In this document: positions 2,765 to 43,176 of the stretch, one piece after another
How positions within the stretch are numbered: the first letter of the stretch is position 1
Layout of the letters: each line of letters starts with the position of its first letter
IMG/VR virus record: IMGVR_UViG_3300031555_001437
Reading direction: 5' to 3' (one strand)
DNA: 64,000 nt
Source: a virus
Lineage: Duplodnaviria > Caudoviricetes
Notes under the pieces: model-generated
Database searches by the model: none
What the model saw: the letters and a program-made list of their open reading frames with translations, nothing else
What the model was told of the DNA's origin: nothing
Position numbers and translations under genes: made by a program

Positions 2765-3517
2765 TTGTTGATTTTAAAACTGAATATTCGTAACCAAAGA
2801 CTAAATAAATTCAACTCCGCAGTTATTGCTTCAAACTCCGCTGGCTATCTTTATTGCCAGTTTAATTTTCTGACTAATGATTGGGAAAAGGTTTCCGTAA
2901 AGATGGCTAATTTTAGCTACAGAGGGCGTAATTTCCCAGTTTTGATTGATGAAAATAATATGTGCGAAGTTCCAGTAGATGTCATTAAGCCAAACGCTTC
3001 CTTTAAGGTTAGTGTATTCGGTGGCGGCATCACTACAAATACTGTTAAATATGAAGTTGAAGATAGTGGAATTACTCCGTTTGAAGACGAGGGTATTTCT
3101 CTAAAATATTACAATGAAATAATCAATAAACTGTCAGCTACTATTGATGACCTCAATGAAACCAAGGCGGACAACATTGTTCTCGACACTGAAACCAATA
3201 CTATTCAGCTTACAGCAAATGGCATGCCAATCGGTGATGCTGTTGACTATGCAAGTTGTGGTATTAAGAGTTTTGATGTTGACGAGAACGATAACATTAC
3301 CATCACTTTGGTTGACGGTCGTGTTATCGACCTTGGCCATGTAGCTGGCGCAAACGGTGCTACTTTTATCCCACACATTGACGAAGACCATATTCTGACG
3401 TGGACAAACGATGGCGGTTTGCCTAACCCCGATCCTGTTGACCTTAATCCTCATGACGAATGGTCTACAGTCCCTGAAGAGGGTGTTGAAACAGAATATG
3501 AGTGGGAATTTCTATGA
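2765..3517 (+). CDS. BppU-like baseplate/fibre adaptor protein
   Basis: N-terminal Ig-like 'YLYCQFNFLTNDW...CEVP' segment. 'LTWTNDGGLPNPDPVDL' fibre motif. Ends EWEFL. Confidence 0.6.
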   Translation: MLILKLNIRNQRLNKFNSAVIASNSAGYLYCQFNFLTNDWEKVSVKMANFSYRGRNFPVLIDENNMCEVPVDVIKPNASFKVSVFGGGITTNTVKYEVEDSGITPFEDEGISLKYYNEIINKLSATIDDLNETKADNIVLDTETNTIQLTANGMPIGDAVDYASCGIKSFDVDENDNITITLVDGRVIDLGHVAGANGATFIPHIDEDHILTWTNDGGLPNPDPVDLNPHDEWSTVPEEGVETEYEWEFL

Positions 3518-3578
3518 TGAAATAACACGGGTTTAATCCTTGTTATATTAAAAATTTTTAGAAAGGAAAGTAACAAAT

Positions 3579-4952
3579 ATGGCACAAAATGTAAAATTTA
3601 TAGCCGTCAAGCTACAAGCGACATTTGACGCTCTTGAGACAAAAGACGCTCTTGCTCTGTATTGGATACATGACACGCAGCGTCTCTACAAAGGCGACAA
3701 GCTCTATGGCACTGGTCTTGAGGCGACTTCTGAATTTGCTGGCTTGATGTCTGCAGAGGACAAGGCGGCTCTAGAAGCGCTTAAGGTTGGCGGTGGTCTA
3801 TCTAACCTCGTACCTGTTGATGGCACAATCTCCATCACAGATGCAGTTGGTGGAGGCAAAGCACTTGGTGTTGCAATTTCTACGCAGAACGGCAACACAC
3901 TGGTTGTAAATGAAGATGGCCTGTTCGTTCAGGAGACAATCGTTCCTGAGTTCACTATTGAGAAGCAGGTAACAGCAGAGGATGGTTTTGCGGCGACCTA
4001 CAGACTAAAGAAAGTTGTTGGGGAAGAGTCTGCTTATGTTGGTGATGCAATCAACATTGCTAAAGACTTAGTCCTTCAGTCTGCTACGCTTGAAGTTGTC
4101 ACAGAGGATGGCGTTCCTTATGGTGGCGCGGTTGTTGGCGACCCATATATCAAAATGGTCTTCAACAACGCAGACGCATCTAATCTCTACATCCCAGTTA
4201 AGGGTCTTGTAGATACCTATTCCGCTGGTGACGGTATCGAAATCGTGGACAACAAGATTTCTGTTAAACTCGCAGATGTCACTCACGGTCTGGTTGCTGT
4301 AAATGGCGCTTTGGCTCTCAATCTTGCTACTCGTCATTATGACGGTGCGATGTCTAAAGAGGACAAGAAGATTGTAGATTCTATTCCTTATGCTTATGTA
4401 GCACGTAAGTATGAGATTTCTGGCACTCCAACAGGTACTCTTGTAAACTACGGCGAGAAGGAAATTCGTGTTATGGTTCCTGCAGGCGCTGAGTTTACAA
4501 AACAGAATGTAGGCGTTGGTGGTGATGCTAACACTTACTATATGACATTTAAGACCTATGCACCGCAGGGTGCTGTTGGTTATAAGGAACACCTTGGTGG
4601 CCAGTCTGACAGTGAAATTTTAGCCGACCTGAAGACCGACGAATATGGTCGCAGATATCAACCTACTTGGTTGGGACTTGCGAAGCTCGACGAGGCCACT
4701 GGTGCGTGGACGTATTACGGCAAAAATTCTGCCGAGTCCAAGTATATCGGATGGGATTATCGAATTGATTGGTTTGACGCAGATGACGTAATGATTGCTA
4801 CCGATTCTGTTCGTATCAATCTGTCAAATGAGGATTGTCACAACAATGTAAAACCTTATTATATTGCAAATTATGCGACTACCGAAAAAGTTGCAGCAAT
4901 TGAAGAATCTATTAAAAAAGCTGAAAACAGCTATACTTGGACAGAAATGTAA
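3579..4952 (+). CDS. Fibre-segment protein with Mtd_N-like N-terminus
   Basis: 457 aa. N-terminal 'ALYWIHDTQRLYKGD', two GLMS/GAMS-DK motifs, 'YSAGDGIEI' fibre motif. Ends WTEM. Confidence 0.7.
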   Translation: MAQNVKFIAVKLQATFDALETKDALALYWIHDTQRLYKGDKLYGTGLEATSEFAGLMSAEDKAALEALKVGGGLSNLVPVDGTISITDAVGGGKALGVAISTQNGNTLVVNEDGLFVQETIVPEFTIEKQVTAEDGFAATYRLKKVVGEESAYVGDAINIAKDLVLQSATLEVVTEDGVPYGGAVVGDPYIKMVFNNADASNLYIPVKGLVDTYSAGDGIEIVDNKISVKLADVTHGLVAVNGALALNLATRHYDGAMSKEDKKIVDSIPYAYVARKYEISGTPTGTLVNYGEKEIRVMVPAGAEFTKQNVGVGGDANTYYMTFKTYAPQGAVGYKEHLGGQSDSEILADLKTDEYGRRYQPTWLGLAKLDEATGAWTYYGKNSAESKYIGWDYRIDWFDADDVMIATDSVRINLSNEDCHNNVKPYYIANYATTEKVAAIEESIKKAENSYTWTEM

Positions 4953-4979
4953 TTAAAATTTTTTTGGAGGAATATAATT

Positions 4980-7376
4980 ATGGCACAGAATGTTTTTTTT
5001 AAAAAGGGCTTACTGGCTAATCTACCTAAGACTTACACTGCAGGTACTTTCTATGTAACTACCGATGAAAGAGCTATGTATCTTGACATTGACGATTCTA
5101 CAAGAATTCGTCTTGGTGATTTCATTCAGGTAGACAATGTTGCTGCACTGCCCGCAGATGCACACGAGAATTGCCTGTACTACTGTGTTGCAGAGAATAT
5201 TCTCGCTAAGTGGAACGGCACAGAGTGGACTCAGATTAACAAGCAGCCTACTGCTGAGGAGATGAAGGCTCTGCTTGGTCTTGGCACTATGGCTTACAAG
5301 TCTGAGGTTGCAGAATCCGACCTGACTGCAGAGCTTGCCGAGAAGGTTAATGCTGCAGCAGAGGGCAATCACGCTCACGCTAATAAGGGTGTTCTGGACG
5401 GCATTACCGCTGAGAAGGTTGCAGCTTGGGACGCTTCTGAGCAGAACGCTAAGGACCATGCAGATGGCCTGAACACCGCTATGAATACTCGTGTTGAGGC
5501 TCTAGAGGCAATCGACCACGAGCACGCTAATAAGGCTCTGCTTGATACTTACACTCAGACCGAGGCTGACCTGGCTGACGCTGTCGCAAAGAAGCACGCT
5601 CACACTTTCGTTGAGTCTGAACTGAACAAGATCGTCGATGGCGACGTTGCTAAGTGGAACGCAGTTGTAGCAGACCACTTGACTGCTGACGATAAGACCA
5701 CTCTTGAGAACGCTATCAAGGAGGCTAAGAAGGCTGGCACTGATGCTAATACCAACATCGAGGCTTATAAGGTAACCAATGATGCTCGTGTTCTCGCAGT
5801 TGAGGAGGATATCGCCGAGATTACTGGCGATAACGGTATTCTTGCACAGGCAAAGTCCTACTCTGATGGCAAGCTTGCTACTGCAAGGACTGAGATCACC
5901 GCAGAGATTGACGCAGACGTAAAGGTTGTTGCTGATGATCTAGCTGGCTATAAGACTACCAATGATGCTGCTCTTGCTGGTGTAAAGGCAACCGCTGAGG
6001 CCGCTGCTACCAAGGCATATACCGATGAAGAGCTGGCTAAGAAGGTTGACAAGGTTGATGGCAAGTCTCTAATTGCAGATACTGAGATTACTAGACTTGC
6101 TGGTATGTCTGATGGTGCAAACAAGGTCGAGGCTTCCGAGACTAACGGCAACATCAAGATTGACGGCGTTGAGACTGTTGTTTATACTCACCCTGACAAG
6201 CACGCTATTGCAGACGTAGATGGCCTGCAGGATGCTATCGATGCTGTTGACGCTAAGTTCGCAGATTATAACACCACTGCTGCTCAGAAGGTACTTGACG
6301 ATGCACAGGATGCTAGAATTAAGGCAATCGAGGATGATTACCTGGTAGAGGCTGATATCGCTAATTTCGAGACTAAGGACAACGTTAAGAAGGTAGCAGA
6401 CGACCTGGCTGCATACGTAGAGTCCAACGACGCTGCTCTGGCTGCTGAGACTAAGGCTCGCACCGATGCAGACGCTGACTTCGAGACTAGAATCGCTGCT
6501 CTGGAGGGTAACTTCGGTGACGGCGAGGGTACTGTTGAGGCTCAGATTGAAGCTGCTGTTGCTGCAGAGACCGAAGCTCGTGAGGCTGCTGTTCAGGGCG
6601 TCCAGGACGATGTTGACGCGCTGGCTGGCAAGGTTGGCGAGGTTCCCGAGGATAAGACTGTTGTACAGATGATCGCAGACGCTCAGACTGCTGCTACCTA
6701 CGACGATACTCAGGTTAAGGCAGACATCAAGGCTAACGCAGATGCTATCGATGCTATCGAGGCTGATTATCTGAAGGCTGCTGATAAGACCGAGCTTCAG
6801 GAGCAGATTACTGCAAATGCAAACGCTATTACTCTGCTGACTGATGGCGCTGATCCCGACAAGGTTGACGGCGTAAAAGACCTGATTGACTATGTTGATA
6901 AGCATGGCCCCGAAGTCACTGGCATGAAGGCAGACATTGCCGCAAATGCTAAGGCTATCGAGGACCACGAGACTCTGGCCGCTGAGACCTATGAGACCAA
7001 GACCGATGCTACCGCTAAGTTGACTGAGGCTAAGGGCTATGCTGATGATAAGGCTGCCGAGGCTCAGGCTGCTGCTGAGGCAACTGCTGCTGGTGCTCTG
7101 GCTGGTGCTAAGACCGAGCTCGAGGGCAAGATTACCGACGGCGACGCTGCTACCCTAGCTTCTGCTAAGGAGTATGCTGACGGTAAGGTTAATGAGCTTG
7201 CTGGCGGCCAGGTTAAGGCCAACGCCGAGGCTATTGTTGCTAATGCAAAAGCTATCACTGATGGCGACGCTGCTGTTGAGGCAAAGATCACTGCTCTAGC
7301 AGAGGGTGCTGTTGCTACTAATGCAGCAAACATTGCAGCTCTAACCAACCAGCTCACTTGGGGCGACTTCGTTTAA
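4980..7376 (+). CDS. Long Ala/Asp-rich coiled-coil fibre protein
   Basis: 798 aa. Mtd_N-like N-terminus (GTFYVTTDERAMY), HxH motifs (HAH, HEH), helical repeats, high-expression codon bias. Ends WGDFV. Confidence 0.75.
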   Translation: MAQNVFFKKGLLANLPKTYTAGTFYVTTDERAMYLDIDDSTRIRLGDFIQVDNVAALPADAHENCLYYCVAENILAKWNGTEWTQINKQPTAEEMKALLGLGTMAYKSEVAESDLTAELAEKVNAAAEGNHAHANKGVLDGITAEKVAAWDASEQNAKDHADGLNTAMNTRVEALEAIDHEHANKALLDTYTQTEADLADAVAKKHAHTFVESELNKIVDGDVAKWNAVVADHLTADDKTTLENAIKEAKKAGTDANTNIEAYKVTNDARVLAVEEDIAEITGDNGILAQAKSYSDGKLATARTEITAEIDADVKVVADDLAGYKTTNDAALAGVKATAEAAATKAYTDEELAKKVDKVDGKSLIADTEITRLAGMSDGANKVEASETNGNIKIDGVETVVYTHPDKHAIADVDGLQDAIDAVDAKFADYNTTAAQKVLDDAQDARIKAIEDDYLVEADIANFETKDNVKKVADDLAAYVESNDAALAAETKARTDADADFETRIAALEGNFGDGEGTVEAQIEAAVAAETEAREAAVQGVQDDVDALAGKVGEVPEDKTVVQMIADAQTAATYDDTQVKADIKANADAIDAIEADYLKAADKTELQEQITANANAITLLTDGADPDKVDGVKDLIDYVDKHGPEVTGMKADIAANAKAIEDHETLAAETYETKTDATAKLTEAKGYADDKAAEAQAAAEATAAGALAGAKTELEGKITDGDAATLASAKEYADGKVNELAGGQVKANAEAIVANAKAITDGDAAVEAKITALAEGAVATNAANIAALTNQLTWGDFV

Positions 7377-7392
7377 TTAACTAATCTACTCT

Positions 7393-7426
7393 CCCTGGCC
7401 TGGCGAAAGCTGGGTCAGGGTATTTT
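7393..7426 (+). terminator. Intrinsic terminator
   Basis: CCCTGGCCTGGC-GAAA-GCTGGGTCAGGG followed by TATTTT. Confidence 0.7.
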
Positions 7427-7449
7427 AAATAACTGTGGAGGATAAACGT

Positions 7450-9540
7450 ATGGCTTTATTTAAACTGCTTAGAGGTCTGGAAACCAACCTCTCTACCGCT
7501 GTTGTTGACGGTCAGGTATATTTCTGTAAAGATACACAGAATTTTTATATCGATTGTGGCGATACGCGTTATAAGATTGCTGCTAAGTATGCGGACAAGC
7601 TTCGCTATGTAGCAGATGGTAGTACTGTTGAGATTGACCCCAGTACTATTTTGACTGATTCTAATTATGCAACCAAGATTGGTGTTGCTTCTTCTTCTAA
7701 GGCTGGTCTAATGACCGCCGCAGACAAGGATAAGTTGGATGGTATTGCGACTGGTGCAAACAAGACAATCGTCGATGACGCGCTGAGCGCAACTAGCACC
7801 AACCCTGTACAAAATAAGGTTATTAAGGATGCTTTGGATAAGAAGGCTGGTTTGGATGTTGCTACTGCTGCTTCTGCTGGTCTTATGTCTGCAGAAGATA
7901 AGGCAACGCTGGATAATCTTGTTGCTGTTGGTGGTGAGGTTAACCAAAATGCATTTAGCAACGTTACTGTTGCTGGCACGAAGATTGCCGCTACCGCAAA
8001 GACAGATAATATTTCTGTTGTTGCTGGCGACAATATCACTCTAACACCCGATGCTGCGAACAAGCAGTACACTATTTCTGCAAAGGATACCACCTACAAC
8101 GCAGCATCTGCTGACGCTGATGGTCTGATGTCCAAAGCAGACAAAGCAAAGCTCGACGGTATTTCCGCCGAGGCTAACAAGTATGTACACGCTACGCATG
8201 ATTCTCATGCTGCTGGCATGTATAAGATTACCGTTGATTCTGAGGGTCACGTATCTAATGCAACGGCTATTTCTAAGGGCGATATCACCGCTCTTGGTAT
8301 TCCTGCTCAGGACACCACATATGACAACGCAACTACTGGTGAGGCTGGTTTGATGAGCGCTGCCGATAAGGCTAAGCTGGATAGCGTCGCTGAGGGTGCT
8401 ACTAATGTTGTTGTGGATTCTGCGCTGAATGATTCTTCTGCAAATGCAATCCAGAATAAGGTTGTTAAGGCAGCTCTGGATGGCAAGTCTGATGTGGACC
8501 ACACTCACGACTATATTCCTAATGCCGAGAAGGGCGCTGCAAACGGTGTCGCAACTCTGGGTGCAGATGGCAAGGTTCCCTCTACTCAGCTTCCTAGCTA
8601 TGTAGACGACGTTCTTGAGTTCGCTAACAAGGACGCATTCCCTGCAACGGGCGAGTCTGGTAAGATTTACGTTGCTCTTGACAAGAACCTTACCTACAGA
8701 TGGGGTGGCACTGCATACGTAGAGATTTCTCAGTCTCTGGCTATTGGCACGACCGCAAATACTGCAGCGGCTGGTAACCACATTCACGATGCTGCTACTC
8801 AGACTGCTAACGGCTTTATGTCTGCCGCAGATAAGGAGAAGCTGGATGGTATCTCTGCTGGTGCTAATAAGTACGTCCACGCTTCTCATACTGCTCACAA
8901 CTCTGGCCTGTACAAGGTAACTGTTGATGCAGAGGGTCACGTTTCCAATGCAGTTGCTGTTACCAAGGGCGATATCACTGGTCTTGGCATCCCTGCACAG
9001 GATACCACTTATGGCGACGCAACGACTGGCGCATCTGGCCTGATGAGCGCAGCAGACAAGAAGAAGCTAGACAGCGTTGCCGAGGGTGCAAATAAGATTA
9101 CCGTCGACTCTGCTTTGAGCGATTCTAGCACAAACCCTGTTCAGAACAAGATTGTCAAGGCTGCTATTGATGCTAAAGCTAACAAGACTCATGAGCATAC
9201 TGAGTACGAGAACCAGAACGCATTTAGTTCTATCAAGGTTGGCGCAACTACAATTGCTGCTGATAACGCGACCGACACTGTTGAGATTGCGGCTGGCGAT
9301 AATGTAACCATTACGCCTGATGCTGCTGCTGGCAAGATTGTCATTGCTGCAACCGATACAACTTATGATGCGGCAACGACTACTGCTGACGGCTTGATGT
9401 CTGCTAGCGATAAGGCTAAGCTGAACGGTATCGCCGAGGGCGCGACAAAGACTATTGTTGATGCGGCGCTGAGCAATACTAGCACAAATCCAGTTCAGAA
9501 CAAAGTCATTTATGACGCGATCAGCTGGATTGAATTTTGA
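7450..9540 (+). CDS. Modular repeat tail fibre protein
   Basis: ATG 7450 after GGAGGA (ORF track starts at 7435). Mtd_N-like N-terminus and seven GLMS/GFMS-xxDK connectors with repeated modules. Ends WIEF. Confidence 0.8.
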   Translation: MALFKLLRGLETNLSTAVVDGQVYFCKDTQNFYIDCGDTRYKIAAKYADKLRYVADGSTVEIDPSTILTDSNYATKIGVASSSKAGLMTAADKDKLDGIATGANKTIVDDALSATSTNPVQNKVIKDALDKKAGLDVATAASAGLMSAEDKATLDNLVAVGGEVNQNAFSNVTVAGTKIAATAKTDNISVVAGDNITLTPDAANKQYTISAKDTTYNAASADADGLMSKADKAKLDGISAEANKYVHATHDSHAAGMYKITVDSEGHVSNATAISKGDITALGIPAQDTTYDNATTGEAGLMSAADKAKLDSVAEGATNVVVDSALNDSSANAIQNKVVKAALDGKSDVDHTHDYIPNAEKGAANGVATLGADGKVPSTQLPSYVDDVLEFANKDAFPATGESGKIYVALDKNLTYRWGGTAYVEISQSLAIGTTANTAAAGNHIHDAATQTANGFMSAADKEKLDGISAGANKYVHASHTAHNSGLYKVTVDAEGHVSNAVAVTKGDITGLGIPAQDTTYGDATTGASGLMSAADKKKLDSVAEGANKITVDSALSDSSTNPVQNKIVKAAIDAKANKTHEHTEYENQNAFSSIKVGATTIAADNATDTVEIAAGDNVTITPDAAAGKIVIAATDTTYDAATTTADGLMSASDKAKLNGIAEGATKTIVDAALSNTSTNPVQNKVIYDAISWIEF

Positions 9541-9558
9541 TATATAGTAGTTTAATAA

Positions 9559-9595
9559 AGGGGAGTAGACTATTATAGCCTATTCCCTGATTTTT
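9559..9595 (+). terminator. Intrinsic terminator-like hairpin
   Basis: AGGGGAGTAG...CTATTCCCT stem followed by GATTTTT. Confidence 0.55.
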
Positions 9596-9617
9596 ACACT
9601 TCAGAGAGGTGGAAACG

Positions 9618-10310
9618 ATGAGTCTTTTCAAGGTATGTAGAGGAGCAGAGGGCAATCTACCATCCACACTTACAGATGGATATGCGTATTTTTGTACTGA
9701 TACTGGCTCCTTTTATATTGACCATAAAAACACGAGCAACACGCTCGTCAGATCTAAAATTTCCGCTAGATATGCGGAGAAACTGCGCTATATAAAAAAT
9801 GGCCAAACAATTGAGATTGATGCTGCTGATATCTTGACCGCAAGCAACGCTGTAACTACTATCGGTACAGCTACTACAAGCAAGGCTGGCTTTATGTCTA
9901 CGGCGGACAAAACGAAGCTCGACGGTGTGGCCGCTGGCGCAGAAAAAAATATTGTTTATGTTGGTCCTACTGCACCAACAGACCCGAACATTAAAGTTTG
10001 GATCAATACGTCCGAAGAGGGCACTGGTGTTATTCCAGTATTGCCAAGAATTACTACAGTTACACTGACATCAAGCAAATGGACTGGTTCGGCTAGCCCA
10101 TATAGTCAGGTCGTGACTGTTAATAGTGTTACTGCAAACAGCAAGGTTGACCTGCAGCCTACAGCTGCGCAGATAGTCAGTCTACAGAACGCAGACATTG
10201 CGCTGATGGCAGAAAACAATGGTGGCACAGTTACTTTTTATGCTTTTGGCGGCAAGCCCAGTTCTAATATGTCTATGCAGGTACTCTTAACGGAGGTGGC
10301 ATACGTATGA
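9618..10310 (+). CDS. Short fibre protein with Mtd_N-like N-terminus and C-terminal beta-sandwich tip
   Basis: N-terminus is a clear paralogue of 7450..9540 (LFKxxRGxExNL...DGxxYFCxDT...A(K/R)YA(D/E)KLRY). C-terminal 'VTLTSSKW...PYSQVVTV' domain is typical of phage fibre tips. Confidence 0.75.
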   Translation: MSLFKVCRGAEGNLPSTLTDGYAYFCTDTGSFYIDHKNTSNTLVRSKISARYAEKLRYIKNGQTIEIDAADILTASNAVTTIGTATTSKAGFMSTADKTKLDGVAAGAEKNIVYVGPTAPTDPNIKVWINTSEEGTGVIPVLPRITTVTLTSSKWTGSASPYSQVVTVNSVTANSKVDLQPTAAQIVSLQNADIALMAENNGGTVTFYAFGGKPSSNMSMQVLLTEVAYV

Positions 10311-10810
10311 TTAGTGGAAATATGATTGGGTCATATAGCCAAATCGGCAAGACGTTTATAATTGTCGATGAAAACGGAAATGAGATTGCTGGAGTTGTTA
10401 CTGATACCCCAGTTATCTTTACTGCGACAGACAACGACGTCCGCGAAGGTTCTGTTTACGCAAGTGATGATGGTATATCTACTGGTTCTAAAGTCATACC
10501 GAGTTATCACACAAATCACGGAGCAAAATTGGTTCCAGCAGGTAGTAAATTTACTATAAGATTATCTAAACTAGATTGTTATGATTATACAAACTTACAC
10601 GCTATGATTTGTGCCTGGAACACAAATTTATCGGATAGCGTTGCCACAGACAGAATTGTCGTGTTAAACGCCGTATATCCAGTTCAATCTACCGAGGCCA
10701 TTTCAAGTGTAACAAAAGACGATAGTACGAAAAGCATAATCCTTGGAATTACAAACGATACGGATTCTCCGTTTGTTATAAGATATATGACTTATAAAGA
10801 AATTGAGTAA
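10307..10810 (+). CDS. Hypothetical tail fibre-associated protein
   Basis: 167 aa. ATGA overlap with the previous gene. 'TATDNDVREG' motif seen in fibre-tip proteins. Confidence 0.6.
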   Translation: MISGNMIGSYSQIGKTFIIVDENGNEIAGVVTDTPVIFTATDNDVREGSVYASDDGISTGSKVIPSYHTNHGAKLVPAGSKFTIRLSKLDCYDYTNLHAMICAWNTNLSDSVATDRIVVLNAVYPVQSTEAISSVTKDDSTKSIILGITNDTDSPFVIRYMTYKEIE

Positions 10811-12673: not shown

Positions 12674-15600
12674 ATGTCAACTAAGAAAATACAAATTGTC
12701 GGCAGTTTAGTTCCTGACGTTGCTACTAGTGGCCAAAACGGATTAATGTCCTCTGCCGATAAAGTTAAATTAGACAGTATTGCAACTGGAGCGACCAATA
12801 CTGTTGTTGATGATGCTCTAAATGATGCATCAACAAATCCTGTTCAAAATAAAGTTATTAGTTCTAAGTTTAATGAAGTCGACGCTAAATTTGCAGAAGC
12901 AAAAGTGTTTGTTGCTATTTATGGCGTAACGACTTATCAAGAGGTTATCAATGCTGTTAACGCAGGTCGTGTCGTACAAGCTAAAAACGAGGCTGGAATC
13001 ATTCACAATCTAGCCGTGGCGGCAGCAGGCGAAGGCTGTGTATTCACACAAACCGAAGGTATGGCGGTGTATGCCTTAATTTTAACTCTTGATGATCAAT
13101 GGGAAGAGGGTTATATTGAGTTACCAACTGCAGATGGGTATTATACTAAAGACGTTATCGACCAGCTTCTTGTAAACAAAGCTGACACTACTCTTGCCAC
13201 AACTACATCACAAGGTTTAATGTCCGCTGAAGACAAAAAGAAGTTGAATACTATTGCAGAAGGCGCTACAAAAGTTATTGTTGATAGTTATCTCAGCACT
13301 GGTTCTAACAACGCTATAAGTAATGCCGCTGTTACTGAACGTTTTATGTCTCTAACACCTGTAATGGGTTATACTGATCCAAGTCAATCTGACTATATGA
13401 GTCCTGCAGCCGTATTGAGTGCAGCGACTTCTGGCAAAACTGTTTACATGATTCATCAAGGGAACATAGATGGACTCGGGACTGTTATCATTACATTTAA
13501 TAATGCATCTTTGTTTTATTCATTAGACGGAGACGGCATGTACGTAGTTGCAAACCAGATTGTTCCTCAAGCAGATGGAAGCTATGTTAACGCGCAGTTA
13601 AAGGGCATATTGGATGAAACTAATAGTACATCACATTGGGAGTTATCTTCAGAGCCTATCGCTAAGCAAAGCGACGTAGAGCAAGCACTCAGTGATTATC
13701 CTCTAATTGGCAACACTACAGAGTTAACTCCTACTCAAGTGGCTGAGGCAATTAATGCAGGTAGACCTATTTGTATTAATCATAATGACGCAACATATGG
13801 ACTGCTCACGATTAATTATGCTGGCCTCGCAGTTGATCAGCAATGTGTCCTTGCTTCCACAATAGTATACTATGCAGGAAACTTTATGATTTGCGAGCTA
13901 CTTGGTTCTCTCGTCGATAATCAGTGGCAAGTAATGTCTACAGTTGTTGCAGAAAAAACTACAGCAACATCCTCGCAAGATGGCTTAATGTCTGCAGCTG
14001 ATAAGTCTAAGCTTGACGGAATCGCAACTAACGCTAACAACTACACTTTACCATCAGCTGGCTCTTCTCTTGGTGGCGTTAAGTCAGGTGGCGATGTTAC
14101 AATTAGTGATGGTGTTATTACAGTTAAAGATGATAGCCACAATCATGTTATCTCTAATATTGATGGTTTACAAGACGCACTGAACGCAAAGGCTACGAAA
14201 GATGCTGCAAGTCAGTCTGCCGCAGGACTTATGTCTGCAGATGACAAGAAAAAACTCGATGGCATCGCTACTGGTGCAACGAAGATCACTGTAGACTCTG
14301 CATTGAGTTCCTCTTCTGCGAATCCTGTTCAAAACAAAGCGGTTCACGCTGCTTTAGCAGATAAGGCTGATAAAAACCACCCTCACGATTACATCCCAAC
14401 TTCTCAAAAGGGAGCGGCTAGTGGTGTTGCAAGTCTTGACAGTAATGGCAAGGTTCCTACTTCCCAACTTCCTTCTTACGTAGATGATGTTATTGAGGCA
14501 ACTAGCAAATCTTCCTTCCCTGCAACAGGCGAAACTGGCAAGATTTATGTTGACACTTCTACTAATAAGACATATAGATGGGGTGGTTCAGCATATGTTG
14601 AGATTTCCGCTTCTCTTGCAATAGGTACGACTAGTTCTACTGCTGCTGCTGGTAATCATATTCACAGCGCTGCGACTACTTCTGTTGCAGGTTTGATGAG
14701 TGCTGCTGATAAGTCTAAATTAGACGGTATCGCAAGTGGAGCGAATAAATATACACACCCGACATATACATCTAAGACCTCTGGCTTATATAAGATTACT
14801 GTTGACGGTGAAGGTCATGTCTCTGGAGCAACTGCGGTAGCTAAGTCTGATATTACCGCACTAGGCATCCCGTCTTCCGATACGACATATAGTGCTGCGA
14901 CTACGAGTGCGGCAGGTTTGATGTCTGCATCAGATAAGTCCAAACTGGATGGTATTGCAAGCGGAGCTAATGCATATACGCACCCTACATACACTGCAAA
15001 GGGTTCTGGCCTGTATAAAGTTACTATCGACGCAAGCGGACACGTATCCGCTGCAACTTCGGTAACTAAGACAGATATCACTGCTCTTGGTATTCCTAGT
15101 AGCGACACGACTTATTCTGCAGCAACAACCAGTACAGCGGGTCTAATGAGTGCTTCCGATAAATCTAAACTCGATGGTATTGCGTCTGGAGCAACCAAAT
15201 ATAGTCACCCAACTTATACATCAAAGACGAGTGGATTGTATAAGATCACAGTTGATGGAACTGGTCACGTTTCTTCAGCGACCGCTGTTGCAAAATCCGA
15301 TATCACTGCTCTCGGTATTCCGTCCTCTGATACAACATACTCAGCAGCGACAACATCCTCTGCTGGATTAATGTCTGCAGCGGACAAAACAAAACTAGAC
15401 GGTGTTGCTACGGGAGCTAATAACTATACGCTTCCTGCAGCAGGTTCTTCTCTTGGCGGTGTTAAAACTGGTGGAGACGTTACTATTAGTGACGGAGTTA
15501 TTACAGTTAAGGACGACAGCCACAATCACGTTATTGCTAATGTAGATGGTTTGCAAGATGCACTTAATGCAAAGGCTACAAAAGATGTTGCAAGTCAGTC

Positions 15601-20674: not shown

Positions 20675-21073
20675 ATGACTAGACAAGAAGCAAAAGCATT
20701 TATTATTGCCGCTGTAAAGCTTCGTGGTCTTGCAACTGATGAGATGTCTCTGCAAGTACCAAACCTCTATCCCACATGGAAAGAGGGCAAAAATTATATC
20801 GCAGGAGAAAGAGTTCTCTACAATGAGGTGCTTTATAAGGTTCTACAGGCACACACTTCTCAGGCTGACTGGACCCCTGCTGTTGCGACAAGTTTGTTCG
20901 CAAAGGTTCTTATTCCTGATGAGAACGTTATCCCTGAGTGGGAACAGCCTGATAGCACTAACCCTTACATGAAGGGTGATAAGGTAAAGTACAACGGTCA
21001 GACATATGTCTCCACTGTTGATAACAATGTTTGGGCTCCCGATGCGTATGGTTGGGAGTTATATACGGAGTAA
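20675..21073 (+). CDS. Tandem CBM5/12 (chitin-binding-like) domain protein
   Basis: 'W....Y..GERVLYN..LYKVLQAHTSQADWTP' and 'W.QP....YMKGDKVKYNG.TY.S..DNNVWAP..YGW'. Confidence 0.85.
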   Translation: MTRQEAKAFIIAAVKLRGLATDEMSLQVPNLYPTWKEGKNYIAGERVLYNEVLYKVLQAHTSQADWTPAVATSLFAKVLIPDENVIPEWEQPDSTNPYMKGDKVKYNGQTYVSTVDNNVWAPDAYGWELYTE

Positions 21074-21083
21074 TTTTATTTAA

Positions 21084-21121
21084 GACCTGGGCTCCGAAAT
21101 ATGGGGCTCAGGTTATTTTTT
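21084..21121 (+). terminator. Intrinsic terminator
   Basis: GACCTGGGCTCC...GGGGCTCAGGTT stem followed by ATTTTTT. Confidence 0.75.
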
Positions 21122-21140
21122 AAGAAAAGGAGGGACTGCA

Positions 21141-24100
21141 ATGTTTGTTGTAACACACAGAAGAGCAACAAAGAAACAATGGGAAGAGTCAAATGTGATT
21201 CCAAAAGAGAGCGAACTGGTAGTTGAAGACTGTGAAGATGGAACTTTTAAAACAAAAATTGGCGACGGTATACATGTGTTTACAGATTTGCCATATCAAA
21301 ACTTAGACGAAGAACTTTCCGAACTCAAAACATACGTGGATGGTAAAGTTGTTGACGGTCTTTACTATGAAGACAACATGCTCTATCTAACTTTAAACGG
21401 AGAGATTGTCTCTGATCCAGTTGAAATAGTAGGTGGCGGTGGCGGCGGTGGTTCGTCTTATAGTATGCGTGTAATTAATGGTATGTCGTCAAGCACACTA
21501 ACCGTTGCAATTGCAGAGAAAATTCTGCTCAATGCGTCGTTTTATGAAGAGTATGGCGGTGTATCAACTGGAGTGAATGGTTCGCTTGAAGTGTACTATA
21601 AACTTGCATCCGAAGAAGAATGGAGTTTTCATAGCAAACAAACCGTTGCTCAAAACACACAATTCTCAGTTGATGTAGCAAATATTCTTGATAAAAGTTC
21701 TGTGACAAATATTCGGTTTGTAGTCACGGGTGGAGAATCTGGAATTGTGCGTACTCTAACATATAACATTACGCAGGTAGAGGCGAGTATTTCTGCAGTA
21801 AACTTTAGTAGTTCTGCCATCTACACTGGTAATATACCCTTCCAATACAAATGTGTTGGACGTAATTTACAAAAAACTGTTTATTTTGAAATAGACGGAG
21901 AGGTGTGTGATACGATTGATGTTGGCACAAGCCACAACGCAGTTTTGTCGCACACCATCAAGATGCTTGGTAATTATAGTTATGGAGCGCATGACTTAAG
22001 AGTATATTTCAAGACAAGTGAGGGCGCTATGTCTAATGTTCTTAGGTATGCTATTTTGTATGATAACAAAGAGTCTGCAGCTCCGATGATTGGTGTAGTT
22101 TGCCATAGTGACGAAATTACCTATGGAGATATTCTGAGTATTGATTATATTGTCTACACTCCTGGACAGGAAACCACTGACGAGCTTCAGATTCGAGTTT
22201 ATGACGATGATGCAATTTACGAGACTACGAGTCTTGTGAATGTGGCAAATAATACGCCATACACGTGGAACGGTACTTCGTATCCTGTTTCTGGCAAGGT
22301 GTATGTTGAATTTAAGAGTGGAGAAACTGTTAAAACTGTTTCGGTGTTGATTAATGAAATTCAGAGTGAATATGAGCTGGCTCAAGTCGCGACTAATCTT
22401 GTGTATAGCTATAGCGCAAACGGTAGAAGCAATAACGATGTCGGTAAAGAATTGTACGAGTGCAATTATACAACGTCTAATGGAGTACAAACCGTGATCG
22501 AGGGACGATTTAGCGGATTTAATTGGGTGTCAAACGGTTATATTGACCGTGAATCACTCACGCTTAGCGGAGATGCTCGACACACAATTGCGTTGCCTAT
22601 GTTCTCTACGAGTTATACAGACAGAGACGGGCAAACGGTCAATCTTGAAAGTGCAACTGGTGCTACTGTAACCACAAATGGCCGTACGTTTGAGATTGAG
22701 TTTAAGGTTAGCAACGTTACCGACAGTAACGCGCAAATTATTAAGTGTATGTCCGCAGAGCATGCTGGTTTTGTTGTGACACCACAGAATTGCTACTTGC
22801 TTTCTTCTAATGGCGCTAACGTGCAAACCGACGAGACTGGATTTATTGAGAATGAAGAAGGTATCGCTGCGGCATATATTCGAGACAACAAGCGCATCAG
22901 ACTCAGTTTTGTTATAGAACCAAAGGGCTCTATTAAATACACTCTTGAGGATGGGACCGAAATGTCTGGCCAGTGCGTAAACATTTACATTAACGGCCAG
23001 TATGCAAACTCATATGTATATCCAGATGGTGCAAGATTTACGAGCTCAGAATATATTACAATGGGTAGTAATACATGTATTCTTAATGTATATGATGTGC
23101 GCGTGTATAATCGTGGCTTGAGCGAGGCGGAAATTCTTCAAAACTATAAAGCATCGCCTCTTTCTGTTCAAGATAAAATCTTGAGATTTGAAGACAACGA
23201 CATCTTAACTGATGATGGAGATGTCGATTATTATAAAGCAATTAACAAATATCCGTGCCTGCTTATCACTGGTCCACTTTCTCCTTATAAGGGCGCCAAC
23301 GGTGTCAAGATGGAGGGCAAAGTTGAGTCTGGGGTAACACTGACAAGGCCAAACGGCAGTGGAGGTCACACTGTTGAATTTGACTTGCTTGACAAGGACG
23401 TAGCAGGAAACTGGGTAAGTTGTAACAACGTACAAGGTACATCTTCTGTTAAATTTCCTATAAAGAACTATAAAGTTTATCTTGTTCAGGTTTTATATAA
23501 TGAGGATGGTACGCCACAGACGGAAACAAACGATGAAGGTAAGATAAAGGTAAAAACTAAAAAAGTTAAATATTCCTTAAAAGGTAAAGATGATGAAGGC
23601 AATGATTTATCTATTGGAGAAAGCACTCTTTGTTGGAAGGGCGACTACATGTCGTCTGACCACGCAAACACCTTTAATGCAAATCTTGCCGATTCTCTGT
23701 TTGATGATATCCTTGAAGCTCAGCGAGAAGATCCGCGTGTACAGAATACGGTGTATGGATTTAGATGTCTGCTATTCCGTAGGGACGACATTGGCAAGCC
23801 GATTGAGTTTGCTGGCGATGGAGCACTCAATAACGACAAGGGCAACACTAAAACATTCGGTCTTGAATGTGAGGGTGACAAAGGCAATGCAACCAAACGT
23901 CAGAAGTGGGAGTTCTTGAATAATACAGAGCCCCTGACCTCATTCCAGACGGATAGATTTTTTGAAGAGATTATTTCTGAGGGCAAAACTGTTCTTCGTG
24001 TAACACAGGGTCTTGAGTCAACGTATCCAGACCAGGGCGACCTCAAAGACAAAGGGCTTACCCCGAAATACGATTACATTCAAACCTTGTATGCGTGGGT

Positions 24101-26972
24101 ATGTCAGAGAGCTAACTTCTGGGATGCTTCGACGGATACAGTAGAAGAACCATATGTTTATCAAGGCGCTGAATATTATACTGAGCGCGAATACCGCAAG
24201 GCTATTTTTATTAACGAATTTGATAAGCACTTTAATAAGAACCACGCACTCATCTATTATCTGTTCATGGAGTTTACAGCTCTTTGTGATAATAGAGCAA
24301 AGAACATGTTTTTGAGATGCGAAAATGTATATAATGAGCACCTACTTGATACTGATGGAAATGAAATTTCTATTATGGACTGTATCGAGGCAGGTACTGG
24401 AATTGTCGACATAAGCCGCATTGACTGGGAGAATTCTACGTTTGCGGTGTGGATTACAGATCTGTACGACCTTGACTCATGTTATGGCGTAGAGAACTCT
24501 GGTTATTTGCAAATACCGTATTACGCAGATTGGAATTACCAGTTGAATGGAACGCAAAAATTTAACGGACGGGAGTCTCGTTTGTGGTTGATGATTGAGG
24601 AAGCTTTAAGTGATGATATTAAGGCTAAGGCGCAGATATTGACAGAGCGCGGCATTGGCGAAGGTGGACTTAATTACGACACTTTATACGACGTACATAT
24701 CAAGAACAACGCGTTACTTGTATGCCCTGCTGTTGTTAATAGAGACATGACTCACAAGTATTCCGATCCGTGGATAGAAGGCTTCGTTGATTATTCACTC
24801 GAAGGTAATCCTGTTCGTCATATTTCTGATTATAAGTATTTGCAGCGTGGTAGCCGCACCCAGCAAAAAGATGCGTATATCTACAAGCGCTCCAACATGC
24901 TTTATAGCAAATATGAATGTAACAAGTTCTTGAACAACAGCATTAACTTCCGTGTTGGAACCAATGGCGGAGTTGTAGCTTCTGAGAGTGGCATATCGAT
25001 TACAGCTAACCAAGTACTGTATCCTGCTGTTAAGTATGGAGACGGCCCTACAGCTATTGTCATTTCTGACGAAAAGACTGCGGCTGGCGTTTCAACAACA
25101 ATCACAAAGCCTGGAACAACGGACGCAGATAAAGTAGGTTTCTCTGATACTATTTTCATTGCTGGCGGCACACTGCTGACCGATATTGGCGACATTTCTA
25201 AATTTAGACCATATGAGATGCAACTACAGAACGCTACTGGCTTGCGCAGCCTGATACTTGGTTCAGATGAGGAAGGCTACGAGAATGTGCAGCTTAAAAA
25301 TATTGACACTTCTGGATGCAAACTTCTAGAGAAACTCAATATTATGGGATGCACCGCACTTGGCCCACTTGACTTGTCCAGCAACGGCCTGTTGAAGGAG
25401 CTTTATGCGTCGAACTCAAGCGTGCGTTCTGTGACGCTTCCGAACGGCGGTGTGCTGGAGAAACTTTATTTGGGTGATATTGTTGACCTTGAAATTCTCA
25501 ATCAATCAAACCTGAAGGTGTTTGAGTGCACAAGCTATAACACACTAGAAAGATTGCGCGTTGAAAATACGCCAAACGTTAATACTTTAGAGATGGTTAG
25601 TGCGCGTTTGCCAAAGCTTACTGGTGGTATACGTCTTGTTGGTATTAATGAGACAATTGATGACATGAGTGTACTTGAACGTCTGATGGGCGATGAGGCT
25701 CGTGGTAAGTATATTGATATGAATGGTAATCTCTCTGAGGACAAGACGTTGTATCCATATATCTCTGGTACTGTACACGTTGACACCATTACTGGCTCTC
25801 AACTACAGCAGCTCAAATCATTCTATCCATATCTGAATATCACATACGACAACCTGATCGCAAACATTATCTACATGAGCGAAGATGGTTTGATTGAACT
25901 GCATAGAGCTATTGTTGTTAATGGAGCTACCGCAGATGATATTGTTGGAACTATCATCGAGACTCCGACCAAGGAAAGCACTGCGCAGTACAACTTTACT
26001 TATGGTGGATGGAGTACTGTTCCTGGCGGCGAGCCCGAGGACGACGCTTTGGAGAATATCGTTATCGACAGAATTGTTTATGTGGCGTTTAACAAAACAA
26101 TTAGAAACTATACTGTTAGATTCTACAATGACACGACCCTGCTCTATACTGTTTCTGTTCCGTATGGCTCCAATGCTGTTTATGCTGGAGCAGACTTTGA
26201 AAAGCTTGGAGTGAAGAACCCAGAGCTCTATGCGTTTATTGGCTGGGCACCAAATCCAGAGAATATCACTGGAAACTTGGATTGTTATGCACAGTATGAA
26301 TTCCTTGGATATATTAAGGATAGCTGGACGACGATTGCTGAAAACGTCGCAAACGGTACATATATTACCATGTATGCGACTGGTAAGTTGAAAGAGTTGG
26401 TTTTGACGTATGCTGATGGCTTTACAGAAACGTTAGACGTTGAGATTGTTGGGTTTGACCACGATAATTTGGCAGATAATTCTGGCAAGGCTGGAATTAC
26501 ATTTATTGCAAAAGAGATTTCCGCGAGAACGTCTCCAATGAATTCTGGTAGCACGTCAAACAGTGGAGGTTGGGAGTCTTCGTATATGCGCAGAGCGACG
26601 ATGGCCACTATATACAATGCTCTGCCAGAAGAACTGCGCAGCGTTATTAAACCAGTAATTAAGAAGGCATCTGCTGGTAGTAGAACCACCGATATTATTG
26701 ATTCTGTTGATAGCATCTGGCTTCCTTCTTATGTTGAGCTTGATAGTGATGCAAGCGGCATATATTTACAAGAAGGTTCTACCTATGCAATACACACCGA
26801 CGATGAAAGCCGTCAAAGATATAAAGAGGGTACTACGACTCAAACGATATATTGGACGCGCTCTCCTGTTGCAAACTCTCAATATGGATTCTGGTATGTT
26901 ACGACAAACGGCGAGATGACAACATTTGGTTCTGACTCACAAATGGGTGTTGCATTTGGCTTCTGCATTTAA
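21141..26972 (+). CDS. Multidomain tail appendage: Mtd_N / LamG-like / CotH-like kinase / LRR / InlB-B repeats / DUF6273 (C-type lectin-like)
   Basis: 'KIGDG..FTDLPY' N-terminus. LamG-like 'IYING...YDVRVYNRGLS'. Kinase-like QGTSS..P.KNYK, DNRAKN and YDLD. LRRs at ~25200-25600. 'PTKESTAQY..GGW' repeats. C-terminal 'GGW..S.MR...LP..L...WLPS..E...YWTRSP...GV..GFCI'. Confidence 0.8.
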   Translation: MFVVTHRRATKKQWEESNVIPKESELVVEDCEDGTFKTKIGDGIHVFTDLPYQNLDEELSELKTYVDGKVVDGLYYEDNMLYLTLNGEIVSDPVEIVGGGGGGGSSYSMRVINGMSSSTLTVAIAEKILLNASFYEEYGGVSTGVNGSLEVYYKLASEEEWSFHSKQTVAQNTQFSVDVANILDKSSVTNIRFVVTGGESGIVRTLTYNITQVEASISAVNFSSSAIYTGNIPFQYKCVGRNLQKTVYFEIDGEVCDTIDVGTSHNAVLSHTIKMLGNYSYGAHDLRVYFKTSEGAMSNVLRYAILYDNKESAAPMIGVVCHSDEITYGDILSIDYIVYTPGQETTDELQIRVYDDDAIYETTSLVNVANNTPYTWNGTSYPVSGKVYVEFKSGETVKTVSVLINEIQSEYELAQVATNLVYSYSANGRSNNDVGKELYECNYTTSNGVQTVIEGRFSGFNWVSNGYIDRESLTLSGDARHTIALPMFSTSYTDRDGQTVNLESATGATVTTNGRTFEIEFKVSNVTDSNAQIIKCMSAEHAGFVVTPQNCYLLSSNGANVQTDETGFIENEEGIAAAYIRDNKRIRLSFVIEPKGSIKYTLEDGTEMSGQCVNIYINGQYANSYVYPDGARFTSSEYITMGSNTCILNVYDVRVYNRGLSEAEILQNYKASPLSVQDKILRFEDNDILTDDGDVDYYKAINKYPCLLITGPLSPYKGANGVKMEGKVESGVTLTRPNGSGGHTVEFDLLDKDVAGNWVSCNNVQGTSSVKFPIKNYKVYLVQVLYNEDGTPQTETNDEGKIKVKTKKVKYSLKGKDDEGNDLSIGESTLCWKGDYMSSDHANTFNANLADSLFDDILEAQREDPRVQNTVYGFRCLLFRRDDIGKPIEFAGDGALNNDKGNTKTFGLECEGDKGNATKRQKWEFLNNTEPLTSFQTDRFFEEIISEGKTVLRVTQGLESTYPDQGDLKDKGLTPKYDYIQTLYAWVCQRANFWDASTDTVEEPYVYQGAEYYTEREYRKAIFINEFDKHFNKNHALIYYLFMEFTALCDNRAKNMFLRCENVYNEHLLDTDGNEISIMDCIEAGTGIVDISRIDWENSTFAVWITDLYDLDSCYGVENSGYLQIPYYADWNYQLNGTQKFNGRESRLWLMIEEALSDDIKAKAQILTERGIGEGGLNYDTLYDVHIKNNALLVCPAVVNRDMTHKYSDPWIEGFVDYSLEGNPVRHISDYKYLQRGSRTQQKDAYIYKRSNMLYSKYECNKFLNNSINFRVGTNGGVVASESGISITANQVLYPAVKYGDGPTAIVISDEKTAAGVSTTITKPGTTDADKVGFSDTIFIAGGTLLTDIGDISKFRPYEMQLQNATGLRSLILGSDEEGYENVQLKNIDTSGCKLLEKLNIMGCTALGPLDLSSNGLLKELYASNSSVRSVTLPNGGVLEKLYLGDIVDLEILNQSNLKVFECTSYNTLERLRVENTPNVNTLEMVSARLPKLTGGIRLVGINETIDDMSVLERLMGDEARGKYIDMNGNLSEDKTLYPYISGTVHVDTITGSQLQQLKSFYPYLNITYDNLIANIIYMSEDGLIELHRAIVVNGATADDIVGTIIETPTKESTAQYNFTYGGWSTVPGGEPEDDALENIVIDRIVYVAFNKTIRNYTVRFYNDTTLLYTVSVPYGSNAVYAGADFEKLGVKNPELYAFIGWAPNPENITGNLDCYAQYEFLGYIKDSWTTIAENVANGTYITMYATGKLKELVLTYADGFTETLDVEIVGFDHDNLADNSGKAGITFIAKEISARTSPMNSGSTSNSGGWESSYMRRATMATIYNALPEELRSVIKPVIKKASAGSRTTDIIDSVDSIWLPSYVELDSDASGIYLQEGSTYAIHTDDESRQRYKEGTTTQTIYWTRSPVANSQYGFWYVTTNGEMTTFGSDSQMGVAFGFCI

Positions 26973-41900: not shown

Positions 41901-43176
41901 GATAATAGAGGCAAATAAAAAACTGGGTCAGTTGCAAGCGCAGCAAGAACAAGCTCCAAAAGAAATTCAAGGTTCTTTTGACTACTTAATTAACCAACAG
42001 AAACAAATCATAGAAGACAAGTCTAAGTTGTTGAGTATAGATAAAGAATTGTACGATGCAGATCGTGTTAAAGCGTACAATGAAGCAATCGGAAGACTTA
42101 AGATTGAAGAGGCTAAAGCTAATCACAGAGAGGATATTAGTGAGTCCAATCGTACGTTTAGACGCCAAGTAGCAAACTCTAGAACGAATGCGCAGTTATC
42201 AAGATCTCGCTCTACGGTTTTTGCAGGGCAGGAGATTATCAGTAATCTTGATAAGATAAAAAATGCCGTTGGTGTCACAGAAGCCAGCAAGGCAAAAATA
42301 AATGAATTGCGCGGCGCTTTGGATGACCTAAAGCAAACATATAACACTCTTAATAATCAGGCTGAACCAATTTCTAAAGAAGACGCCGATAAAGTTATTA
42401 GTCAAACAAACAATGTTCGTCTGCTAAATGCAGAAATGAAAAAGCTGTTAGAGCAACATCAGAAATTGAGCGGAGACAATGTTGATGTTATTGGGGTATA
42501 TAGCCCCAAAATGACCAGAAAAGATATAGAAGATCAAACCCTAGAATGGTACAAAAAAATGCACCAGCAAAACCCAGACGAATATAAGGGTATTAATATC
42601 AAAGGGTTTGACGATAACGGGAATTTAATTGCATCGCTAAAATCTGGTGCAAAAGAGTTTACTAATATTTCTGTAGCTGTCGACAAACTGTCTGGTAACA
42701 TAGCTGTTGTTCGTGGCCAGGTCAAAAAGACTCTTGGCCCTGTTGATTTGATTATCGATAAAACAAAACAGTTAGGATATTATTTAACTGGTTCATTTTT
42801 GATTAATTTTGCTAGGCAGCAGGTTCAAAAGGGAATTCAGTATGTAAGAGAAATTGATAGTGCTTTAACTGACTTAAAAAAAGTAACAGATGAAACAGAA
42901 GAAACATATGAAAAATTTTTGGATACAGCGAGTAAAACTGCAGACAAGGTAGGAAGTACGATAAAGGAAATTGTAAGTTCTACTGCAGATTGGAGCCGTC
43001 TTGGTTATTCTCTCGAAGATGCGGCAAAGCTTGCAGAAACAACTTCTGTTCTGTTGAATGTATCTGAATTTTCAAGTATAGACGAAGCAACGAGTGCACT
43101 GACCAGTACGTTGCAGGCGTTTGGATATACGGCAGATAACGCTATGGGCGTTGTAGATGTCATGAACGAAGTGGGT
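38920..43176 (+). CDS. Tape measure protein, exon 1 (1419 codons)
   Basis: Helical protein with TMP core 'IDSALTDLKKVTD...WSRLGYSL...VVDVMNEVG'. It continues in frame as NNFAVSS at 44170 once the intron is removed. Confidence 0.9.

Follow-up and report, generated by a model that had tools for sequence, protein, structure and literature searches.

Paired terminal motifs in five consecutive genes of a gut phage suggest a segmented, head-to-tail tail fibre

We have analyzed a stretch of 64,000 nucleotides (nt) from a virus of the Caudoviricetes (IMG/VR record IMGVR_UViG_3300031555_001437), referred to here as the window, a block of genes on one strand that belongs to a large gut phage with giant structural genes. 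Five consecutive open reading frames (ORFs) on the (+) strand, ORF1 to ORF5, carry short motifs at their ends that are paired from one gene to the next. ORF1 to ORF4 each end in a tail with a conserved tryptophan (Trp), and the genes that follow them, ORF2 to ORF5, begin with a homologous module of ca. 40 amino acids (aa), the N-module. The evidence inclines us, by a modest degree, to the reading that the five proteins make up a segmented tail fibre, anchored by a BppU-like protein and assembled head to tail, whose segments would be ordered by cognate connectors formed by tails and N-modules. The coordinates, termini and starts of all five genes, and the lack of a tail in the last one, were as described in an initial annotation of this DNA. 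The features are the following:

2765..3517, + strand: ORF1, 250 aa, BppU-like by fold (AlphaFold2 and Foldseek), putative anchor, without N-module
3497..3514, + strand: class alpha tail of ORF1, YEWEFL (consensus Y-x-W-E-x-x)
3579..4952, + strand: ORF2, 457 aa, putative first shaft segment, with class a N-module, one GLMS..DK..L connector and class beta tail
3579..3713, + strand: class a N-module of ORF2, residues 1-45 (profile match E = 8e-14)
4932-4949, + strand: class beta tail of ORF2, YTWTEM
4980..7376, + strand: ORF3, 798 aa, Ala-rich, Pro-poor putative shaft segment, with class b N-module and class gamma tail
4980-5099, + strand: class b N-module of ORF3 (profile match E = 4e-17)
7353-7373, + strand: class gamma tail of ORF3, LTWGDFV
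7450..9540, + strand: ORF4, 696 aa, putative shaft segment, with class c N-module, six GLMS..DK..L connectors and a Trp tail
7450-7569, + strand: class c N-module of ORF4 (profile match E = 3e-18)
9520-9537, + strand: tail of ORF4, ISWIEF
9618..10310, + strand: ORF5, 230 aa, putative terminal segment, with class c N-module and without Trp tail
9618-9737, + strand: class c N-module of ORF5 (profile match E = 2e-19)

Conserved tryptophan tails at the C-termini

The Trp is located at position -4 or -5 from the end in all four tails. Homologues of ORF1 carry it in 120/120 cases, at -4 (108) or at -5 (12), within an end of the type Y-x-W-[ED]-x-x; when it is at -4, Tyr is found at W-2 in 108/108 and Glu or Asp at W+1 in 104/108. 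Proteins sharing the N-terminus of ORF2 fall into two length classes, ca. 300 and ca. 460 aa, with different middle domains, and still the tail is kept, 118/120 ending in [YF]-[TS]-W-[GT]-[ED]-[MLI]. The remaining two end in different domains, a beta-helix in one case. Among the proteins that share the N-module of ORF3 (446-970 aa), 114/120 have W-G-x-F at or near the end, with Phe as last residue in 108/108 of those with Trp at -4. The W-[IV]-E-F end of ORF4 recurs in related loci (L001-L007) and in P0430 and P0432. Neither the terminal proteins of the chains nor P0179, a class a protein that carries a beta-helix enzyme domain, have a tail.

The conservation of the tail in homologues, on which the initial annotation depended, is therefore high, with the motif in more than 95% of 360 homologues of the ORF1, ORF2 and ORF3 types. 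Because Trp at -4 is found in only 17/625 unrelated ORFs of the same loci, and here in four consecutive genes and nearly all of their homologues, four successive Trp tails by chance are excluded. The consensus first proposed, W-x-[DE]-[FM], was right about a conserved Trp near the end and too narrow in the rest, given that the residue at W+2 is not conserved as acidic and is frequently Ser or Thr (WGSF, WGTM), and that the ORF1 type follows its own pattern. What is kept is the Trp, its distance from the end (-4, rarely -5) and a class-specific last residue.

At the nucleotide level, the tail codons for Gly, Ser, Thr, Glu and Phe vary synonymously, which argues for selection on the protein and not on the DNA. 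Besides, lineages differ in the DNA 3' of the stop codon of the tail genes, with the next start at a distance of 27-180 nt; given this spacing and the codon variation, a Shine-Dalgarno or other DNA signal was rejected. The same data bear on a broader alternative, in which an assembly chaperone, a protease or a host factor would recognise the tail as a tag, or the tail would reflect a gene-end signal in the DNA. The cluster does contain small conserved genes with no assigned role, such as the one at 10307-10810, that could fit a tag. However, synonymous variation and divergent downstream DNA speak against the DNA signal, and a common chaperone tag would need no class-specific variants tied to the N-module of the next gene, so that we consider this explanation highly improbable.

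A common module at the N-termini

A profile built from 14 N-termini matched ORF2 to ORF5 at residues 1-40 (E = 8e-14 to 2e-19) and no other ORF of the window, ORF1 included. Both statements of the initial annotation, that the four following genes begin with a related module of ca. 40 aa and that the first gene lacks it, are borne out. When the profile was run against 1.84 billion representative proteins, clustered at 50% identity, at least 3,988 clusters were found at E <= 0.001, of which 440 reached E <= 1e-10. The module begins at residue 1 in nearly all of the 150 best-scoring of these 3,988 clusters. The 150 are mostly of class c and mostly tail-less, and their C-terminal parts (260-1475 aa) differ widely, as exchangeable tips would be expected to do.

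The module had been likened to the Mtd_N/hyaluronidase-type attachment domain. The AlphaFold2 model of the class a module, with a predicted local distance difference test (pLDDT) score of only 69, consists of four short strands and one helix, and its best structural match was the trimerisation domain of collagen XVIII (Z 5.2; collagen XV/XVIII, Z about 5). Residues 4-49 of this model (pLDDT 69) aligned to residues 5-49 of Mtd with Z 3.0 and a root-mean-square deviation of 2.5 A over 38-39 residues, and the same low-confidence model gave Z 2.3-2.7 with the N-terminus of HylP. Pfam Mtd_N (PF18454) matched 2/15 modules, with a best E of 0.0041, and none when whole proteins were scanned. A profile search of the PDB with the N-module gave spurious matches only (beta-propeller repeats, an antibody). 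What remains of the comparison is a weak likeness at the matching position, the extreme N-terminus of a fibre or receptor-binding protein (RBP) as for Mtd_N/HylP-type domains, with Mtd and HylP scores below any family threshold; a relation to Mtd_N is plausible, not established.

Tail class and module class are paired across loci

We gathered 66 loci from IMG/VR, ENA, JGI, Logan contigs and one metagenome-assembled genome (MAG), with 808 distinct ORFs. A tail-bearing ORF was followed by an N-module gene in 97/147 cases, against 27/608 for ORFs without tail, and 98/127 N-module genes come after a tail-bearing gene. The rule that one motif is always followed by the other holds to this extent and not beyond it, as tail-less proteins precede N-module genes in several lineages. 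The pairing is specific for classes. Ends of the type Y-x-W-E-x-x precede class a modules (start MA(Q)NV-F with LYW..DTQ.LYKG), W-[GT]-x-[ML] precedes class b, and W-G-x-F or W-[IV]-E-F precedes class c (start MALFK). Tail class predicted the downstream N-class in 80/80 tail-bearing pairs, after six misassignments by crude regular expressions had been corrected by eye. Co-occurrence and order of the two motifs, a check suggested by the initial annotation, are kept in diverged phage loci.

Some rearrangements separate the tail from its usual carrier. In L025 and L001, unrelated proteins of 1089 and 481 aa, without N-module, end in W-G-[ST]-F and precede class c genes. L029 has an additional class a segment of 140 aa with an alpha-type tail, located upstream of another class a gene. 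In L002 and L007, W-[IV]-E-F is paired with the same class c subtype despite two intervening genes. These examples indicate that the pairing goes with the tail and not with the protein that carries it. Chains have from three to five links (L010, the window, L072 and L029), and the additional segments of L029, L061 and L072 obey the same grammar. The cassette is found after the tube gene in SPbeta-like phages (neighbouring Pfam families YomU_Tube, YonB, YonD_N and YomW) and after Tal and Dit-like genes in another phage group (L010-type loci), and is therefore portable.

A branched arrangement has to be considered here, in which each N-module protein would be attached separately to the BppU-like anchor or to the baseplate and the gene order would be nothing but inherited synteny. 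There are precedents, namely the tripods of TP901-1 and the monocin FtbN with one FtbO and three FtbP, and the ability of BppU-type proteins to hold several trimers is known (PMC4742702, PMC11830787). The L049 lineage and L074, where a class b gene comes after a class a gene without tail, also speak for it. Against it, the conserved tails of ORF2, ORF3 and ORF4 would be left without a role, the three N-classes are matched by three or four distinct tail classes, and the grammar is kept when extra segments appear. We regard it as improbable.

Other terminal motifs were seen in these comparisons. In L001 (12739-15674) and L025 (10964-15744), class b-like proteins end in E-V-H-x-I-T-L-x and the next proteins start with M-A-x-x-N-L..Y-T, contain R-R-G-N-P-N-P-L-D and end in the W-G-[ST]-F tail, a possible second type of connector. 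Faecalibacterium phage Taranis was discarded as a relative, as it matches the Ala-rich part of ORF3 only and has neither of the two motifs. In this P2-like myophage (L071, 7174-9333) two consecutive fibre proteins both end in E-M-L-A-E-I-Y-x-x, which is a different repeated C-terminal motif.

A BppU-like protein as the putative anchor

The first gene had been proposed to code for a BppU-like protein, and the fold of its AlphaFold2 model (pLDDT 79) confirms this. An immunoglobulin (Ig)-like sandwich (residues 1-100) is followed by a helix (111-132), both of them BppU traits, then by beta-hairpin repeats (137-215) and an acidic tail whose last ca. 35 residues are unstructured. The top Foldseek match was the BppU of TP901-1 (4v96, E = 1.5e-6, prob 1.00), followed by 3uh8 (E = 2.4e-3) and the baseplate proteins of 80alpha (6v8i) and NF5 (9m8o). 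ORF1 matched no Pfam family at E <= 0.1, hence not BppU_N either, and its sole family match was phrog_19695, of unknown function. It is not beside Dit (54163-55131) and Tal (55144-58818), which are found 50 kilobases (kb) downstream in the window.

Gene order and motif pairing are the grounds on which the C-terminal part of ORF1 may bind the N-terminus of the next trimer. A PDB search with the tail module of ORF1 found nothing, and matches of its C-terminal region to Clostridium perfringens podophages were set aside, as they involve only the internal repeated hairpin motif and do not reach the tail, and the podophages lack the grammar. A complex prediction with three copies each of ORF1 171-250 and ORF2 1-90 scored 0.18, compared to a mark of 0.32; it was run without controls and is counted neither way.

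The tails could also have a different role within a real chain. Trimeric fibres frequently fold from a C-terminal nucleus, such as the foldon of fibritin, and the Trp motif might do no more than cap, or nucleate in register, the C-terminus of trimers that have no globular end, while other surfaces would contact the N-module. Consistent with this, the motif comes directly after predicted helical sequence in ORF2 to ORF4, and terminal proteins with globular ends do not have it. However, a cap leaves unexplained why the last residue and W+1 track the class of the downstream module and why a similar motif ends the unstructured 35-residue tail of ORF1. Our estimate is that this is improbable too.

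Neighbouring features of the cassette

Two other features of the cassette are relevant:

7393..7420, + strand: strong terminator-like hairpin in the gap between ORF3 and ORF4, 12-bp stem followed by a T-run
10307..10810, + strand: gene of 167 aa whose start overlaps the stop of ORF5, conserved as neighbour of this type of tip in L025, L033, L034 and L073

GC-rich hairpins are also located after the gene equivalent to ORF3 in other loci (L009-L053). In L012 and L016 the cassette is identical except for an ORF of 279 aa (13101-13940), probably a mobile element, inserted precisely between its class b and class c genes. The 167-aa gene may code for a chaperone or a distal partner, because it invariably follows, on the 3' side, a tip of the ORF5 type; the end of ORF5, TEVAYV, is shared by the terminal proteins of the same four loci. 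The starts at 7450 and 9618 are supported by ribosome sites, GGAGGA and GAGGTGG, located 7-8 nt upstream.

No Pfam match was found for ORF5, and the GenBank phages include no close relatives of the locus, ORF2, the tube protein or the N-module. For ORF3 a test of heptad periodicity gave no signal, the observed value being reached by 146/500 shuffles, and we claim no coiled coil. The same five-gene chain is found in L072, a MAG contig of 134 kb binned with an Acutalibacteraceae genome, which is a lead to the host.

The proposed fibre

In the serial fibre that we favour, ORF1 would sit on the baseplate by its Ig-like N-domain and present a flexible C-terminal tail ending in Y-x-W-E-x-x. ORF2, ORF3 and ORF4 would be trimeric shaft segments and ORF5 the tip. 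At each junction the last residues of the proximal protein, its Trp at -4 and class-specific final residue included, would meet the N-module of the distal protein, probably a trimerising, Mtd_N-like latch. Both motifs are at the very ends of the chains, which suggests that the termini themselves are within the interface. The connector classes would fix the order of the segments and, at the same time, let segments and tips be inserted, dropped or swapped with the chain intact. The docking of the tail into the module, the trimeric state, the stoichiometry and the attachment to the baseplate are all parts of the model that we infer. A heterotrimer of class a, b and c proteins was rejected, as loci have from three to five N-module genes and these differ greatly in length. 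Nothing was found in support of the polymerisable, pilus-like fibre of the initial annotation or of a donor-strand logic; the junctions differ in their specificity class, which argues for a fixed order rather than polymerisation.

Several points weigh against this fibre. The 80 concordant pairs are mostly inherited synteny, and few independent rearrangements separate the tail class from its carrier. There are also breaks in the grammar. In the L049 lineage and L074, as said above, the gene before class b codes for a class a protein without tail. In L001 and L029 the protein encoded before class b ends in Y-Q-W, and one class b' module is found after three different tails, W-G-E-M-M, W-G-E-I and S-W-E-E-W. 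The first junction could branch instead of extending the chain, because the BppU of TP901-1 holds three RBP trimers. Finally, the hairpin at 7393-7420, after the class b gene, hints at unequal expression, with the proximal segments in excess over the distal ones.

A stronger version of the serial fibre would make tails and N-modules orthogonal peptide-socket connectors, a true assembly code in which the last four residues alone choose the next trimer. Segments could then be re-ordered at will, and those that connect to their own class (class c with W-G-[ST]-F, as in L020 and L072) could extend themselves into fibres of variable length. We find this version rather doubtful.

Other features of the window

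Besides the cassette, some other regions of the window deserve mention. Between 18676 and 20392, within the fibre gene cluster, two tandem BspA-type leucine-rich-repeat proteins were detected (Pfam LRR_5, E = 6e-84). At 20675-26972, a protein of 132 aa ending in Y-G-W-E-L-Y-T-E is followed by a fibre protein of 1943 aa whose N-terminus (R-R-A-T..W...G-D-G) resembles the other, HylP/Mtd type of start module; the two may be a further docking pair. The tape-measure gene (38920-52584) is seemingly split, with an ORF of 1425 aa that ends inside the PhageMin_Tail match, then an ORF of 241 aa with a LAGLIDADG-like start (43287-44012) and then one of 2818 aa. This could reflect an intron or the insertion of a homing endonuclease.

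Significance

Tail fibres set the host range of phages, and how separately encoded fibre pieces meet is known in detail for a few model phages only. A class-specific terminal motif together with a portable module of 40 residues would give a rule to read fibre architecture from metagenomic sequence, telling which genes belong to one fibre, in which order, and which of them is the tip. With at least 3,988 clusters at 50% identity carrying the module, such a rule would apply to many uncultured gut phages. The pair of motif and module would also offer a compact means to join fibre segments or to exchange them.

Comparison with known systems

The closest parallel to ORF1 is the BppU of TP901-1 and Tuc2009 (ORF48; PDB 4v96, 3uh8), with which it shares the Ig-like N-domain followed by a helix. 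In these phages BppU holds the N-termini of the BppL trimers, and in Tuc2009 a C-terminal extension of 25 residues in BppU recruits an additional protein, BppA (PMC4742702). The proposed likeness is that the next trimeric protein is held by its N-terminus on the C-terminal part of the anchor. Unlike the BppU of TP901-1, the C-terminal domain of ORF1 is made of beta-hairpin repeats and a disordered Trp tail, and the attachment would be repeated here four times in series, not once.

In the Listeria monocin, the "treble hook" of FtbN docks the N-terminal beta-hairpin "latches" of FtbO and FtbP (PDB 9j1l; PMC11830787), and, as cited in the same source, a hydrophobic loop of 80alpha fits into the cup that a fibre trimer has at its N-terminus. 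We propose here as well that a trimer docks by a small N-terminal latch on a BppU-like protein, at the distal end of the latter, and the stalk of ORF4 matches the side-fibre protein FtbO (9j1l, E = 1e-7), as does that of ORF5. However, the monocin fibre branches in a single tier, each FtbN bearing one FtbO and three FtbP, and no C-terminal Trp motif has been described in it. The solved systems are a precedent for one junction of this type, a principle that would be reused serially here by means of short terminal motifs. Mtd (Bordetella phage BPP-1, 1yu0) and HylP (streptococcal prophage, 2c3f) have a small domain at the N-terminus of a trimeric receptor-binding protein, which is also the position of the N-module in ORF2 to ORF5, although the best structural match of the N-module is the collagen XVIII domain and not Mtd. 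As for chaperone-usher pili, the Pfam matches in the window name no usher or chaperone.

The long tail fibre of T4, gp34-gp35-gp36-gp37, is similar in being encoded by consecutive genes as an end-to-end fibre, with the baseplate-proximal segment first and the tip last, and no homology to ORF1-ORF5 was detected with the tools applied. It uses a monomeric hinge protein and dedicated chaperones, and is not known to have a common connector module or terminal motif. The T4 fibre genes are listed in 10.1101/2024.10.28.620165. The gene order and motif grammar of ORF1-ORF5 fit a putative series of segments of the T4 type, anchor first and tip last. In the literature that we could cover, which is incomplete and does not prove absence, no description of the pair of tail and N-module motifs was found. 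Multi-gene fibres and the docking of RBPs by BppU were known before; what would be new here is the serial reuse of such docking with paired terminal motifs.

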